Assembly: GCA_030748495.1 (NCBI GenBank) | Contig: JASMLX010000007.1 | Location: 18,856-82,855, forward strand | Direction: 5' to 3' | Origin: Candidatus Poribacteria bacterium | GTDB taxonomy: Bacteria > Poribacteria > WGA-4E > UBA9662 | DNA: 64,000 nt | In this document: positions 28,733 to 43,217 of the stretch, piece after piece | Layout: every line of letters starts with the position of its first letter | Position numbering within the stretch: position 1 is the stretch's first letter | The notes under the pieces: generated by a model | The model's input: the letters and a program-made list of their open reading frames with translations, nothing else | What the model was told of the DNA's origin: nothing | Databases searched by the model: none | Position numbers and translations under genes: made by a program

Positions 28733-29375
28733 GGATACTCCTGTTATATTGCGATTTGAGAGTGACATACTTTTTGGCAACCACGGTTCATGGACGAAGC
28801 TATAAGAGTTTAAGGAAACATCAAGGAACCCGTCGGTGGGTAGCCAAGTGCGGGAGATAAAAGATTTGGTAGTGTCCAATGTTAGCTGATAACACTCTTT
28901 CATAAAGTCTAAAATTTGTTTCTTTTGAAGATCCTAGAACATCAAATTTGTCCTCCTTGTCAGAGCCAAAATAGAGTCCAAATGGGACTACCGCTTCTGG
29001 AAAGCAGAAGATTTATGGCTTAGATTGTTAAGCTGACAGGCTTCCAGACTCTTCACCTGACACGGAAGAGAAAACAGAACCGAGTCTAAAAACCGACCCA
29101 GAAACAGCTTCTTTGACCGGCTGGCCAAGAATCTATGCTGTTGCTCCGCAAACAGTTATCAACTGGATTAAAAAAACAATTGGAGGATCTTTCTCCAGAT
29201 CAAGTCTTAATAGATCCTGGGCCGGAAGATATTTTAGCGTTAGATGAAATCTGGTCTTTGGTTGATTCCAAAGCTAACACAGCCTGGCTTGGGTTTGCAA
29301 TCGGTAGAAGGGGTCAACAATTAGTTGGTTGGCATGTAGGAACAAGAGACCAAGTATCAGCCAACTACTTTTTGC

Positions 29376-36428: not shown

Positions 36429-36784
36429 TCACGGTTTTCTAATCAACAGTGAACCACAAGCCCCAATCTTAACTACGCACTCATTCAACAATACACCCAA
36501 AGGTTTTCTCCCTCCATAAATATCCAAAGTAATCGATCCATGAGAATGACCAATCAATTCCTTGATAAAGGGTTCATATACCTTCTTATTGGTTAGTTCG
36601 TTGGCTACAGTATGCCTGAAGGAATGAACATTCTTACCTTTCTTCTTGATCCCGGGTTTAATCAGGTATTTTCTAAACCACCTGCTAATCATTGTTCCAT
36701 AACCTGTGCTTCTCATTTTCTTCAGGTTTGGGAATAACTTCTCTTGATTCTGATTCTGATTCTGGATTTGCTTGACATAATCTA
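36429..36784 (-). pseudogene. Tyrosine recombinase C-terminal fragment
   Basis: 'HSFRH', 'LIGHS', catalytic 'DIY'; N-terminus cut at the IS982 end. Confidence 0.8.
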
Positions 36785-37765
36785 ACGTCAATTATGGATA
36801 AGCAGAAGTATTACATTAGCTGATTAGCCCCCGGATATTTTTACCAATTGTTGCCTTTTTGGGTCACCAAGCATCGGCACACAATGCAGCCAAACTGTTT
36901 ATCATCAACCCCCAACTACTTCGATGACCTGAATGCTCAACCGGGCAAATATTTTTACGCTGCTCGTTAACGGATTCTATCACACCAGGTTTATTTAATC
37001 ATAATTTATCCCTGAGCGGCATTAATTTATTTGTCATGTTTTTCTTGACACCAGTTACCAATTGAACTCCTTGAGCCATCAAAGGTTGAAATAATTTACC
37101 TGACAATTGGCGTCTTAAATCGGCCACTGGATCTCGATCATCAACATCTCCTGCCCTGATTTTAAATGCCATAATCTCTCCCACATCATTGATCACTAAG
37201 TGCAATTTAAAGCCAAAAACCGACCGATTGTTGATCTGGCTTTTGTGGCAACACCTCTCAAGACTCGATTCGGTCGCTCTGGTTTGATGTGATAGGCTTT
37301 TAGAATGGTTGAATCAACCACATAAACTCCTGTTGCTTCTCCTTTGAGGGTGGGCAGGAAAAAATTCAACGGAAGCCAAATAGACTTGACTCGTGTAATG
37401 AATGGTGGGTAAGAAACTAAATTTGGAACCAATCCGCGTCAATATTTTGGAAACTGTTGAAGAGAGAAAAGTTTAAAATTGTCGGTCATGACTTTGGTGA
37501 AAGTGAATCACAATGGTCATAATTTCAGCGGTGGGCAAGATGGTTTGGCGCGGCCGTTTCCGCCAGCCATTTGAGAGTAAAGTTTTATCCCATTGGGGCC
37601 AAAACTGCGGGCCAAATTCATCGACCAGACAATATAAATGTAAGTAGAGTATCTTCCATAATGACGTCCTTGTTTGGTTTGTGCGGCTAAATTGTGATAA
37701 TTCGATCAAGACATAAAAGGGTCGTCATTTCAACAAGTTACACTTTCCTTATCCATAATTGACGT
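36785..37765 (-). mobile_element. Degenerate IS982-family element
   Basis: Perfect 18-bp TIR ACGTCAATTATGGATAAG; 'AEIMTIVIHFHQS', 'VVDST', 'LHLVINDVGEI' fragments. Confidence 0.9.
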
Positions 37766-38338: not shown

Positions 38339-41300
38339 ATGAAATCTTCGTACCGTCTGCTTTTTATTCTTTTGCTACTGTTACCTCGAGTTTCTTTAGC
38401 TCAAGAGAAAATTACCTGGGAGAAAGACGGCTCAGAGATGGTGATGATTCCGGGCGGTACCTTTGAGATGGGAGATAGTAAGAATGGGCCCGAGGACTTT
38501 ATGAAACCTTCGCAGCCAGTGCATACTGTGACTCTGGATGCTTTCTATATGGATAAGTGCGAAGTGACCAACACCCAATACCGAGAATTCATGGAAGCCA
38601 CCGGCCACCGTCAGCCTGCATACTGGAATGATCCTCTAATTAACCAACCCAACCAACCTGTAGTTGGAGTGGGTTGGGTTGATGCGGCAGCTTATGCCAA
38701 TTGGGTGGGCAAACGCTTGCCTACTGAAGCCGAATGGGAGTATGCAGCACGAGGCGGATTGGCCGGGAAACGGTATGTTTGGGGAGATGGTAACATTGAT
38801 GGGAAACAATGTAACTTCGCGGACAAGAATGCACCTAACGATTTCACCTGGGCTGATCGGACGGTGGATGATGGCTATCAATACACCGCACTCGTAGGAT
38901 CATATTCGGCTAACGGCTATGGACTTCATGATATGGCGGGCAACGTCTGGGAGTGGTGTGCTGACTGGTATGATGAAAACTACTATGGAAATTCGCCTGC
39001 TAAGAATCCAATGGGGCCGGACACCGGCTTCAACCGGGTGTTGCGGGGCGGGTCTTGGATCCACAATATCGTTCCCCTACGCGTGGCTATCCGCGACCAT
39101 GACGCTCCGAATAATGCGAGCGCTTACATCGGATTTCGCTGTGTAATTACCGGTTTACCTGCAACGATCAACATCAGATCGAGTTCTACTAGCCTGGTGG
39201 CTGACGGTAGTACGACCACCAGCTTAACTATTACTCTCAAAGACACGACCGACCAGGACCTGTCGGGTCAGGTGGTCACCTTGACGGCTGATAATGGGAC
39301 AGTCAGCGCTGTTACGGATAACGGCGACGGCACCTACACCGCCACCTACACAGCGGGCAGCCAGGCGGGTACGGCTACGGTAACGGCTAAGACTGCTAAC
39401 GGTAAAACCGATACAATCCAGATCACGTTGACGAAGGTTGCCACGTTTGTAATGTCGGTACTGGAACCGGAGTTGTCGGTTCCAGTGGGTGAGTCGGTCT
39501 CCTCTCTAATCGAGTTGGAAGGTAAAGATAGCTTTAGTGGTACCATTGATCTATCTGCCACTGATCTACCTAAAAACACGACCGCCGGTTTCGATTCGGA
39601 GTCAGTCAAATTAACGGTGGCCGATCCTATTCAGACCGCGCAACTAACGTTGTCATTGGATCAGGATATTGAAGCTAAAACTTATGAGTTTACGGTTTCA
39701 GCCAGCAGTGAAGGTGGTCAAACGGAAAAAGTTACCTTCACGCTAAAAGTGGAAGCGAGAGATCCCGACCCGACCACGATAACTATTGTGGTTGATCCCA
39801 GAGAATTGACTCTAGGTGGTTCATTGAAAGTAGCTGGACAGTTAGTCTCGATTGCGAAGCTGGCAGTAGAGATTCCAGTCGGTTCTGTCATCGCATTGAC
39901 CTTGACCTCACCCAGTGGAGAAAACATCCCATTTGAAGCCAAGACCGCGGAGAGTGGTAACTATCAACAACCTTATACCCCGGATGAAGTGGGTGAGTGG
40001 CAGATCAGTGCTGAATTTGTCGGCACTGAAACCTTGAAAGTTTCTCAGCACAATGACACCTTTACCGTCCGCGCCAGAGAGGTAGAAAGTGTTGGCCTCC
40101 AATCGGATTCAACCGACTTAACGGCCGATGGTGTCACAACGGCCGCACTGACCATCACCCTCAAAGATACGGCTGACCAAACTGTATCAGGACAGGCGGT
40201 TACCTTAACGGCGGACAGTGGGCAAGTCAGCACCGTTACAGATAATGGGGATGGCACCTATACTTCCACCTACACAGCGGGCAGCCAGGTAGGAACTGCT
40301 ACAGTGACAGCTAAATCAGCTAACGGGAAAACTGGTACCGTCCAGATTACACTGACGGAGGCTATTACATTTGCGCTGTCGGTGCCGAAACCGGAGTTGT
40401 CAGTTAAAGCGGGAGAATTTGCCACCTACCAGATTACGTTGAAAGAGAAAGGCGGTTTCAGTGATACCATTAATCTGTTTGCCAGTAACCTTCCCCCAAA
40501 TACAACAGCTAGTTTTAATCCGGAACAGGTCAAATTAACGTCGGCCGAGCCCGTCCAGACTACGCGACTGACACTGACCTCGGGCCAAGATATTGAAGCC
40601 ACAGATCACACCGTCACCGTTCTGGCCATCAGTGAAGGTGGCAAAGCGAAAACAGCTACTTTAAGACTAAAAGTGGAAGCCGAAGATCCCGGCCCAACTA
40701 CGATTACAGTGGTAGTAGATCTCAAAGATGTAGATTTAGGTGATTCAATAAAAATAACTGGGCAGTTAGTCTCGATTGCAGAACCGGCAGTAGAGATTCC
40801 GGTTGATTCTGTCATTGCACTGACCTTAACCTCCCCGGCCGGAAAGACTGCGAGCTTTAATGTCAAGACTACTGAAGGTGGCAACTATCAATTAGATTCG
40901 CTCTACCGACCAGATGAAATAGGAGAATGGCAGGTTAACGCTGAATTTGTCAGCACCGAGACCTTGAAAACCTCTCAGCACCGTGCCAAATTTACGGTGC
41001 AAAAACCGGCAGATAAACTAACAGCTAAACTAGCAGGTGATGTTAACGGTGATAAGACGGTCAACATCTTTGACCTGGTGATAGTAGCAGGTCAATTTGG
41101 CCAAGCAGGACCAGGTTTAGAAGGAGACGTCAACGGCGATTTTGGAGTTGATGTCTTTGATCTGGTACTGGCAGCCAGTAACTTTGGCCAGTCGGTAGTA
41201 AGCACAGCCCCAACTATAACGACCAGTATCGAACTCAGTACGGAACAGAAGTATCATATTGCCAATGCGATTGACCAATTAGAGTCTAACCCTAATCGCT

Positions 41301-41653
41301 CACCCGCGGAAGAGGTAGCACTTAACGTTCTGCAAGCCATATTGCCAGAGAGATTGCCCACTCAAAACCAATTACTAGCCAACTATCCCAATCCCTTCAA
41401 TCCAGAAACCTGGATACCTTTCCAACTGAGTCAAGATGCCGATGTAACCATTACCATTTATGATGTTCACGGTCGACGGATACGACGATTGCAGCTGGGA
41501 CTGATGACGGCGGGAAGGTATGTAGCTGCAGACCAGGCCGCCTATTGGGATGGGAAGACTGAAACGGGTAAACTAGTGGCCAGTGGCACTTACTTCTATC
41601 AGATAGAGGCTGGAGAGTATACCGAGACACGGAAGATGATAGTTCTGAAGTAA
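38339..41653 (+). CDS. Secreted FGE-sulfatase (SUMF1/CLec) + invasin Big_1/Ig repeats + dockerin-like + FlgD/T9SS-type CTD protein
   Basis: Signal peptide; 'RLPTEAEWEYAARGG', 'GNVWEW', 'RGGSW..GFRC'; two 'DNGDGTYTxTYTAG'; two 'GDVNGD'; 'NYPNPFNPETWIP...TRKMIVLK'. Confidence 0.92.
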   Translation: MKSSYRLLFILLLLLPRVSLAQEKITWEKDGSEMVMIPGGTFEMGDSKNGPEDFMKPSQPVHTVTLDAFYMDKCEVTNTQYREFMEATGHRQPAYWNDPLINQPNQPVVGVGWVDAAAYANWVGKRLPTEAEWEYAARGGLAGKRYVWGDGNIDGKQCNFADKNAPNDFTWADRTVDDGYQYTALVGSYSANGYGLHDMAGNVWEWCADWYDENYYGNSPAKNPMGPDTGFNRVLRGGSWIHNIVPLRVAIRDHDAPNNASAYIGFRCVITGLPATINIRSSSTSLVADGSTTTSLTITLKDTTDQDLSGQVVTLTADNGTVSAVTDNGDGTYTATYTAGSQAGTATVTAKTANGKTDTIQITLTKVATFVMSVLEPELSVPVGESVSSLIELEGKDSFSGTIDLSATDLPKNTTAGFDSESVKLTVADPIQTAQLTLSLDQDIEAKTYEFTVSASSEGGQTEKVTFTLKVEARDPDPTTITIVVDPRELTLGGSLKVAGQLVSIAKLAVEIPVGSVIALTLTSPSGENIPFEAKTAESGNYQQPYTPDEVGEWQISAEFVGTETLKVSQHNDTFTVRAREVESVGLQSDSTDLTADGVTTAALTITLKDTADQTVSGQAVTLTADSGQVSTVTDNGDGTYTSTYTAGSQVGTATVTAKSANGKTGTVQITLTEAITFALSVPKPELSVKAGEFATYQITLKEKGGFSDTINLFASNLPPNTTASFNPEQVKLTSAEPVQTTRLTLTSGQDIEATDHTVTVLAISEGGKAKTATLRLKVEAEDPGPTTITVVVDLKDVDLGDSIKITGQLVSIAEPAVEIPVDSVIALTLTSPAGKTASFNVKTTEGGNYQLDSLYRPDEIGEWQVNAEFVSTETLKTSQHRAKFTVQKPADKLTAKLAGDVNGDKTVNIFDLVIVAGQFGQAGPGLEGDVNGDFGVDVFDLVLAASNFGQSVVSTAPTITTSIELSTEQKYHIANAIDQLESNPNRSPAEEVALNVLQAILPERLPTQNQLLANYPNPFNPETWIPFQLSQDADVTITIYDVHGRRIRRLQLGLMTAGRYVAADQAAYWDGKTETGKLVASGTYFYQIEAGEYTETRKMIVLK
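39172..41005 (+). repeat. Intragenic tandem duplication of an about 0.9-kb three-domain Ig module
   Basis: Units approx. 39172-40080 and 40090-41005 share peptide and DNA blocks (e.g. cagttagtctcgattgc, cggcagtagagattcc-like). Confidence 0.85.
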
Positions 41654-42038: not shown

Positions 42039-43217
42039 ATGCTAAATAACACCTGTTCTTTAAAAGTTAATGGGGCCAAAGAATCAACCCGGGAGGGAAA
42101 GTCTCTGCCGAGAACAGCTCATCACCGCCACCCCGGAGGGAAGAAGCAACCGGTACTCCGTCTGCTGTTTTGGGAAACAACTACAGGTTGTAACTTAGAG
42201 TGTGCGCACTGTCGACGGCTTGACGTGAGCCAACGGTTAGCCAAAAGTGATTTGACAACCGAGGAAGGCCTGGCCTTCATCGATGCTCTGACGGCAACAC
42301 AGAAACCGATTTTAGTTTTTAGTGGTGGTGAACCGCTGATGCGTCCGGATATTTTTGAACTTGCCGCATACGCCATTGGGCGAGGATTGATAGTGGCACT
42401 CGCCACCAACGGGACGTTAGTGACAGACCAAATTGCAGCCAAGATCAAGAGCGTTGGCATCGACCGTGTCAGCATCAGCATTGATGGCGAAAATGCTGAG
42501 ACCCATGATGGGTTCCGAAGGCTACCAGGCTCATTTGACCGTGCTTTGGAGGGAATCGCTTACCTGAGAGCGCATGATGTTCCGGTCCAGATTAATTCAA
42601 CTGTTGCCAAGCATAACGATGACCAACTCCCGGGTATCTACGACTTGGCGATCGATGTTGGGGCAATAGCGCTGCACCTGTTTATGTTGGTACCCGTTGG
42701 ATGCGGAGTGCAGATCGCTGACAGTGTTATGCTGTCAGCAGAACGACAGGAGGAGGTATTACACTGGTTCTACGATAAATCTAAGGAAAAAGCACTGCAA
42801 ATGAAAGCAACCTGTGCCCCTCACTACTACCGTATCATGCGGCAGCGTGCACAGGCAGAAGGAACAAAAATTGATCGCTCTACCCACGGTATGGCAGTTC
42901 TAACCAAAGGCTGCTTGGCAGGAACCTCGGTCTGTTTTGTTTCTCATAAGGGACAGGTTTTCCCCTGTGGATACCTCCCGGTTGAGGCCGGCAACGTAAG
43001 ACACCAACCCTTTGGGGAAATTTGGGAAAATGCATCGTTGTTCGAGACACTTCGCCGTCCTGAACTGTTGAAAGGGAAGTGCGGAGTCTGTGAATACATA
43101 AAGGTGTGCGGTGGTTGTCGAGCACGCGCCTATGGAGAGGTCGGGGATCTACTGGAGGAGGAGCCCTACTGTATCTATCAGCCACCAATCCAAATCTCGA
43201 AAACCCTAGATAACTGA
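42039..43217 (+). CDS. Radical SAM/SPASM protein, AhbD/NirJ-like (alternative heme b synthase candidate)
   Basis: 'WETTTGCNLECAHC', 'ATCAPHYYR', 'GCLAG..CFVSH.G..FPCGY', 'CGGCRARA'; true start may lie downstream. Confidence 0.85.
   Translation: MLNNTCSLKVNGAKESTREGKSLPRTAHHRHPGGKKQPVLRLLFWETTTGCNLECAHCRRLDVSQRLAKSDLTTEEGLAFIDALTATQKPILVFSGGEPLMRPDIFELAAYAIGRGLIVALATNGTLVTDQIAAKIKSVGIDRVSISIDGENAETHDGFRRLPGSFDRALEGIAYLRAHDVPVQINSTVAKHNDDQLPGIYDLAIDVGAIALHLFMLVPVGCGVQIADSVMLSAERQEEVLHWFYDKSKEKALQMKATCAPHYYRIMRQRAQAEGTKIDRSTHGMAVLTKGCLAGTSVCFVSHKGQVFPCGYLPVEAGNVRHQPFGEIWENASLFETLRRPELLKGKCGVCEYIKVCGGCRARAYGEVGDLLEEEPYCIYQPPIQISKTLDN

Follow-up and report, generated by a model that had tools for sequence, protein, structure and literature searches.

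A probable former variable region of a diversity-generating retroelement, retired within the FGE-type head of a secreted multi-domain protein from a Poribacteria genome

The stretch of DNA analyzed here (the window) comprises 64,000 nucleotides of a Candidatus Poribacteria genome (assembly GCA_030748495.1, contig JASMLX010000007.1). Our subject is one gene within it, an open reading frame (ORF) of 1104 amino acids (aa) whose N-terminal domain, of the formylglycine-generating enzyme (FGE) sulfatase type, ends in a segment that resembles the variable region of a diversity-generating retroelement (DGR). An initial annotation, made from the sequence itself, had marked this segment at 39029–39146 and proposed that it is rewritten by a DGR located elsewhere in the genome. 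The segment contains a block, 39035–39145, that is homologous to a DGR template repeat, and we read this block, with a probability of roughly 60%, as a former DGR variable region that is now a relic. The features of the locus are as follows.

38339..41653, + strand: ORF, 1104 aa, secreted multi-domain protein (ORF list and Pfam)
38339..38401, + strand: probable Sec signal peptide of about 21 residues with a hydrophobic core and an SLA end (judged by eye from the translation)
38432..39145, + strand: FGE-sulfatase / C-lectin fold domain, aa 32–269, without the catalytic Cys pair (Pfam and PDB alignment)
39035..39145, + strand: DGR-template-homologous block (variable-region-like, RVLRGGSW..GFRCV), residues 233–269, read as a relic variable region
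39146..39222, + strand: sequence just 3′ of the block, in which the cis elements of sister targets are missing (alignment and hairpin scan)
39158..39433, + strand: first Invasin_D3 / Big_1 Ig-like domain, aa 274–365 (Pfam)
41033..41164, + strand: dockerin-like calcium-binding repeats, aa 899–942 (Pfam Dockerin_1, sub-threshold)
41384..41644, + strand: C-terminal sorting domain, Por_Secre_tail / FlgD_ig, aa 1016–1102 (Pfam)

The Pfam assignments agree with the domain order first described for this protein, in which Ig, dockerin-like and secretion-tail domains follow the variable segment. The FGE-sulfatase match (PF03781) is strong (E = 5.1e-70; 236.5 bits against a gathering cut-off of 23.3), two Ig-like stretches are reported (Invasin_D3, 1.2e-32; Big_1, 4e-17), and Dockerin_1 (E = 0.0096; 16.5 bits) falls under its 22.9-bit cut-off. 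Por_Secre_tail passes narrowly (8.5e-07; 29.6 bits against 27), which makes the protein a candidate for type IX secretion. The N-terminal signal-like sequence likewise suggests that the protein is secreted. The first Ig domain starts four residues past GFRCV, with ITGLP directly after that motif and no linker in between. Matches to the 1104-aa protein in the six other genomes of the family were domain-wise only, with no whole-protein orthologue among them.

Over its whole length the head domain is closest in sequence to true FGEs (PDB 2q17 and 6muj, E = 1e-58 to 3e-59), and it also matches the Treponema denticola variable protein 2y3c (E = 2.6e-20). In the alignments to 6muj and 2q17, the window protein reads WI-HNIV--PLRVA where the enzyme chain reads YLCHDSYCNRYRVA, and both cysteines of the ..CHDSYC.. 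loop after RGGS, which we take to be the catalytic residues of FGE, are missing. Because it has an FGE/C-lectin fold without the cysteine pair of true FGEs, we read the head as a ligand-binding domain rather than an enzyme, and it would not be expected to make formylglycine.

The block holds 17 variable codons (ATC CAC AAT ATC GTT CCC / ATC / GAC CAT GAC GCT / AAT AAT / AGC GCT TAC ATC), framed by the fixed residues RVLRGGSW, LRVA, R, P, A and GFRCV. The codons are as first listed, and C or T does end all 17, vs. 8 of the 20 fixed codons in the block. With 580 of the 1104 codons of the ORF ending in C or T (52.5%), the chance of 17 out of 17 is 1.8e-5; given the amino acids present, it rises to 0.023, because many of them have codons of the form NNY (Y being C or T) only. 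The codon pattern by itself is therefore only mildly unusual—suggestive, but short of decisive—and this is a point for a reading in which the gene is an ordinary FGE paralog never written by a DGR, whose NNY codons would follow from the many Asn, Asp, His, Tyr and Ile residues of the loop. That FGE matches number 6–61 per genome across the order is in keeping with such a reading, to which we return once the template has been described.

Aligning the FGE paralogs, as the initial annotation had suggested, brought out a DGR-like codon footprint. The assembly (7.0 Mb in 529 contigs, 80.6% complete, 47% GC) carries an expanded family of FGE-type lectins with 142 PF03781 matches, and the window block is one of 96 similar blocks in it. 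In a codon-by-codon alignment of 99 paralog blocks, bases 1 and 2 of the variable codons are scrambled, with A the commonest base in most such columns, while the third base is specific to the column: T is commonest in columns 16, 17, 29, 31 and 32 (51–68 of 99 blocks) and C in the other twelve (53–74 of 99). The synonymous bases of fixed codons are also common to the paralog blocks; at their four-fold sites a consensus A (GTA, CGA) is variable and a non-A base is kept, and codon 17 varies at base 1 only (ACT giving T, A, S or P). Conservation among the 26 ungapped top blocks averages 0.55 in columns whose consensus is A vs. 0.89–0.91 in C and G columns, and the homogenized stretch begins sharply at CGGGTGTTG and extends to about GTGTCAGGA. 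Outside the block per-column conservation drops to about 0.3–0.6, and the window copy and its nearest paralogs disagree at about 24% of 129 upstream bases. This footprint is what adenine-specific copying of a template rich in AAY codons would leave, and the combination of scrambled first and second bases with a column-specific third base led us to predict such a template. Population variants inside the assembly were also considered as a source of the short contigs and rejected, as no two contigs among the 73 ungapped rows paired near-identical flanks with different blocks; each short contig therefore represents a paralog of its own.

A pattern of 26 letters, written on the basis of this footprint, matched six metagenome contigs, on which the matches translate to RVLRGGSWNNNTNNLRVANRNNNNPNNRNNNNGFRCV or a close variant; the scan finds only templates that fit this pattern, and it gave no match among the viral contigs. 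On four of them (L047, L048, L050 and L052) the match reads RVLRGGSW/NW NNNTNN LRVANR NNNN P NN R NNNN GFRCV. At non-A bases L048, L050 and L052 fit the consensus of the assembly nearly everywhere, and L047 deviates more. Two variants of the template were seen, in which the GGSW serine codon is TCT and AAT, respectively, and the blocks of the assembly are split between both. On L047 the template stands in the order two-FGE target (616 aa), reverse transcriptase (RT, 355 aa; RVT_1, 5.5e-23), template, bAvd (109 aa; 7.6e-18) and a 1370-aa protein with Ig, peptidase C13, dockerin and Por_Secre_tail domains; the ORF order is the same on L050 and L052 (RT, template, small ORF).

The cassette can be tied to a strain nearly identical to ours. 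Bases 1–1586 of L052 equal C480:2963-1378 of the assembly (99.6% identity over 1586 bases), a shared stretch that includes a remnant of an rve_3 transposase and the 3′ part of an FG-GAP/UnbV/TPR gene. Beyond C480:1378, L052 leads on to a truncated FGE target and the cassette, and the assembly to a DDE_Tnp_1 transposase remnant; 1.4 kb further on, C480 ends in a repeat that at least ten contigs carry. The breakpoint at C480:1378 lies between the rve_3 and DDE_Tnp_1 remnants, in a spot rich in insertion sequences (IS). The window itself carries, at 28867–29020 (C507:47722-47875), a repeat of about 150 bases that is 87–93% identical to the C480 end and to copies on at least nine further contigs; it coincides with contig ends and may be an IS end or a miniature inverted-repeat transposable element.

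The 80.6%-complete assembly itself yielded no RT, Avd or template, in the window or in any other contig, in agreement with the initial statement that neither an RT nor a template repeat lies near the gene and that any targeting would have to act in trans. Pfam found no RVT_1 match in it, tblastn with the cassette RT and Avd nothing better than E = 0.59, and blastn with the cassette DNA matched the variable-region blocks only; none of 104 nhmmer hits to a profile of 26 blocks exceeded 26% A, and blastn of the block likewise gave no template there. The search for a template repeat, proposed with the initial annotation, therefore failed in the assembly and succeeded outside it, beside RT and bAvd genes on metagenome contigs of which L052 is linked to C480. 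As the cassette contigs are short (5–6 kb) and flanked by repeats, loss of the cassette from the bin is a plausible reason for the absent RT.

In the wider lineage, RVT_1 and the cassette RT were each found in 0 of the 6 other genomes of the family, and the cassette RT was found at 58–60% identity in 11 of the 159 genomes of the order. The six family genomes hold blocks with 4–16 non-A mismatches to the templates and give 1–17 DNA matches each, far fewer than our assembly, in which all 40 scored candidates (of 88) matched. The cassette RT is 51–54% identical to RTs on two cyanobacteria-labeled contigs (L054 and L055). A further 6-kb contig (L053, CAZPZZ010000201.1) with a 98% identical RT, a template and an Avd is binned in a metagenome-assembled genome (MAG) that its submitters label Vicinamibacteraceae; this MAG lies outside the seven genomes of the family, and the contig is probably mis-binned.

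Compared with the template of L048 over the first 108 bases, the window block is 72% identical (78/108), with differences at 20 of the template's 36 A sites and 10 of its 72 non-A sites (Fisher p = 1e-5). This template homology and adenine bias sustain the initial view that the segment is DGR-related, and the block is very probably derived from the template after the paralogs diverged, because its third bases match and its silent sites are more alike inside the block than upstream. The variable-codon third bases equal those of the template in 13 of 17 cases, and the synonymous bases of the fixed codons match it as well (CGG GTG TTG CGG .. TCT .. GCT .. CGC .. CCG .. TTT .. TGT). At silent third positions the window copy differs from the top sister blocks at 4–9 of 29 sites inside the block and at 13–34 of 43 upstream, a contrast with p < 0.05 in 23 of 24 comparisons that are not independent of one another. 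A past DGR origin would leave just such an excess of silent and non-A identity over the flanks, together with differences enriched at A sites.

These observations bear directly on the reading of the gene as an ordinary paralog, in which likeness to the template would be common ancestry and the template itself would derive from an FGE gene. The 27 ungapped blocks least like the template still average 12.1/17 NNY codons, so that the NNY bias is partly common to FGE paralogs unlike the template; their third bases, however, equal the column-specific C or T of the template in a mean of only 5.8/17, against the 13/17 of the window copy. With the silent sites far more alike within the block than upstream and the fixed codons sharing the template's synonymous bases, we consider it very improbable that the gene was never written by a DGR.

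The differences of the window copy from the template are not confined to adenines. Adenine sites account for 20 of the 30 mismatches (67%), under the >80% rule quoted in a passage of PMC7517822, and according to the section of PMC5758913 on the subject, DGR variable regions show only A-to-N changes with minor exceptions. The 12 best sister blocks have 1–3 non-A mismatches of 70–72 (C155, 1/70), and the 73 ungapped blocks form a graded series in which twelve have 1–3 such mismatches, twelve have 4–6, sixteen have 7–12 (the window copy, with 10, among them) and 27 have 23–38; the class means of third-base template matches are 16.5, 15.4, 13.4, 10.2 and 5.8 of 17. When a 120-base template is compared with 96 blocks and gaps are allowed, the numbers of blocks with up to 3, 6, 9 and 12 non-A mismatches are 11, 23, 41 and 54, respectively; the window copy, with 16/82, stands in the 60th row of the 96.

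The other explanation to be weighed is that the gene is still a working remote target, its block rewritten in trans by the cassette or by a variant template to give the hypervariable tip on an Ig stalk that was first proposed. The presence of the cassette in a near-identical strain speaks for this, as do the adenine enrichment of the mismatches, the circulation of two or more variants of the template, as noted above, and a template identity that, at 72%, passes the 50% threshold given for “remote VPs” (variable proteins) in the relevant part of PMC7517822. A second template would have to fit the non-A bases of the window copy, including ATC at 39068–39070, CTA CGC at 39077–39082 and, at the 3′ end, GTAATTACC. 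Nearest-neighbor and shared-deviation counts, however, found no group of sister blocks sharing these deviations, as a second template would give, and the 10/72 non-A mismatches, with just 67% of mismatches at adenines, count against a working target too.

The sequence that follows the block bears on the same question. In well-matched blocks the 3′ side is conserved and consists of GTGTCAGGAT, a spacer, TTACC, a GC hairpin of 6–7 bp with a 3-nt loop (GAA or GCA) and CTTTAC; in an alifold model of ten sequences, C-G/G-C switches occur at two of the six stem pairs. These two pairs look like compensatory swaps. Reportedly, the DGR of Bordetella phage needs 3′ cis elements for retrohoming. By analogy with that work, and with a passage of PMC8144416, the conserved 3′ elements would be required in this DGR as well. 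After the window block, alignment found no GTGTCAGGAT motif, GC hairpin or CTTTAC, and a scan of 39146–39222 (loops of 3–5 nt) found no GC-rich stem of at least 6 bp and no CTTTAC; all that this sequence holds is an inverted repeat of 7 bp at 39194–39222, whose loop is 15 nt long. At the 3′ end of the template, 10 of 14 bases differ in the window copy. The window block thus has neither an end like the initiation of mutagenic homing site nor a nearby GC hairpin, which argues against a target still in service.

The conserved element follows the stop codon in C155, C22, C46, C150, C194 and C65, and it stands in frame in C75, C503, C313, C16, C154 and C58, where it is translated as a linker (..SGSNFTSGASAGGDFTS..). 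The protein on C154 (1081 aa) is an internal target of the same design as the window gene, with Dockerin_1 above the cut-off; template-matching internal targets such as those on C154 and C58 are a further point in favor of a working window gene. The 24 best ungapped blocks include 15 at C-termini and 5 internal ones, and 3 more extend for over 150 codons up to a contig end. The internal position of the segment had been called unusual, and this stands as far as print is concerned, internal and N-terminal variable regions being described as rare and mechanistically notable in the pertinent text of PMC5758913; in this genome it does not, as about 8 of those 24 blocks are internal. On C160, C197, C75 (~7300), C120 and C49 we also observed an AT-rich perfect palindrome of 10–11 bp with a 4-nt loop, which sits between the stop codon of the variable region and the GC hairpin and may be a small palindromic insert.

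Natural populations offer a further view of the block. The window gene occurs in 20 runs of marine or seawater origin, drawn from 11 studies, and contigs of four runs (X2, X3, X6 and X7), from four studies and different years, were compared. One contig of X6 spans 38339–39305 with 0 differences, and one of X7 spans 38487–39374 with a single difference, 39115 T>G, where the template has no A and the codon AAT becomes AAG. For X2 and X3 there are 0 differences in 38339–39058 and 1 in 39030–39293; their pieces end at 39058 and start at 39030, breaks that fit k-mers common to paralogs and that we did not use as evidence. Apart from 39115 T>G, the same block is thus found in the long contigs of all four runs, with no adenine-site diversity among these contigs, and where the initial annotation had expected variation at codon positions 1 and 2, the sole change in the block is at a third base. 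The rest of the window gene shows ordinary single-nucleotide polymorphisms among the contigs. The first Ig domain is lengthened in frame at 39365 by CGGGTA repeats, 12 bases in X6 and 6 in X7, a small tandem-repeat length polymorphism. A dominant allele that is identical across studies and years joins the non-A mismatches and the missing 3′ elements in weighing against a working hypervariable tip; we regard continued rewriting of this block as unlikely, though less so than the absence of any DGR history.

The reading that we prefer, a retired variable region, is carried by the template homology, the adenine bias, the missing cis elements and the invariance among contigs. Past homing and the order of events would have been as follows. 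A reverse transcriptase would copy a template repeat of AAC/AAT codons, misreading its adenines, and the cDNA would replace the homologous block (mutagenic retrohoming), overwriting the codons of the binding loops and leaving NNY codons that carry the template's third base. One template family would serve, or would recently have served, dozens of paralogous heads in this genome from an RT-template-bAvd cassette located elsewhere, seen only on short metagenome contigs of the near-identical strain. The window copy would have been frozen when its 3′ recognition elements were lost, given that the Ig stalk now follows the block directly; ordinary substitutions would then have accumulated at non-adenine sites, and its present sequence would have become fixed across ocean samples.

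Several points weigh against this reading. Logan contigs drop rare variants, which leaves room for adenine variation at low frequency; the figures for X2 and X3 are so close that both may stem from one data set, making about three independent samples; and the population comparison covered the window gene only, without a well-matched sister block as control. The block differences are those among the differences listed, and 142 further ones exist. The silent-site divergence of the window copy (about 17–31%) is little above the 13.5% among the top blocks, and the age that the word relic conveys may be overstated. The 20% of the genome that the assembly lacks could hold a template variant fitting this copy, and, with the cis requirements of this DGR taken from analogy, an internal target might use other signals.

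Beyond the window gene, this lineage may run the largest DGR target repertoire described, in which one or two related templates would rewrite at least two dozen FGE-type heads across the chromosome, several of them internal with the hairpin as an in-frame linker, and from which the window gene would have been retired; we hold the case for this to be evenly balanced. If it is true, the genome holds a series of variable regions from live to fossil, one that shows the recruitment of targets by domain shuffling and then their decommissioning. Such graded decay could also serve for studying how a target passes out of DGR control. The loop of the window protein is best read as a fixed specificity left by a retroelement, and its annotation as a live variable region is unwarranted. 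Surveys that require a variable region beside an RT overlook remote targets, and because a cassette can be lost from a bin in which dozens of its targets remain, DGR counts based on MAGs can be badly low. The codon footprint of the paralogs, on the other hand, can recover a missing template well enough to find it in other data. Finally, the in-frame hairpin linkers indicate a cis element apparently tolerated within coding sequence, which bears on the argument, made in a passage of PMC8144416, that C-terminal variable regions are explained by cis elements free of coding constraint.

The surroundings of the gene add two observations. Upstream, between 36000 and 38338, the one ORF of at least 100 aa is a 120-aa frame on the − strand (36429–36791) that matches only the C-terminal part of Phage_integrase (8e-09) and may be a mobile-element remnant. 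The next gene downstream (42039–43217, + strand) encodes a radical-SAM protein whose best match, to the heme b synthase AhbD (1.2e-145), reaches 485 bits and falls short of the 500-bit cut-off.

Among known systems, the FGE enzyme (SUMF1; 2q17 and 6muj) is the best sequence match over the whole head domain, yet its loop, ..YLCHDSYCNRYR.., has two cysteines where the window protein has a shorter, Cys-free loop that is also its first variable stretch. The T. denticola DGR with its variable protein TvpA (2Y3C) is alike in that an FGE-sulfatase-type C-lectin head bears the variable loops and one template serves several non-adjacent genes; here, however, non-A mismatches number 6 or fewer in 23 blocks and 12 or fewer in 54, the window copy is degraded and the cassette lies outside the assembly. 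No published description of a DGR of this lineage appeared among the papers listed, though no search was aimed at one, and remote targets are, according to PMC8144416, missed by contig-based surveys.

The cyanobacterial DGRs treated in PMC7517822 come close in other respects. The part of that study concerned with them describes scattered C-lectin paralogs, both with and without a template match, near which transposases occur; remote and degenerate copies of variable proteins are a described category there, and 121 of 219 paralogs in 21 genomes are DGR-matched. Template matches in that account lie only near 3′ termini, whereas in this genome some 8 of the 24 top-ranking ungapped blocks are internal, and the targets here bear sorting-type C-terminal domains (the window protein and C154) or dockerin repeats (C503) rather than regulatory domains. 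The Thiohalocapsa system, as presented in the main portion of PMC10907252, comprises nine loci with 15 targets and shares with ours the many targets, incomplete loci, action in trans, and transposon-driven duplication with domain shuffling; as with its transposons, IS remnants flank the cassette site at C480. Its targets are NTPase-type sensors of conflict systems, whereas those here are mostly small FGE-only ORFs and proteins with Ig, dockerin and sorting domains; activity was shown with reads for those targets, and template-matched blocks are more numerous here. With non-adjacent targets reaching a maximum of seven in the corresponding section of a 2018 survey (PMC5758913), the number of template-matched blocks in this genome is large against published main-text figures.

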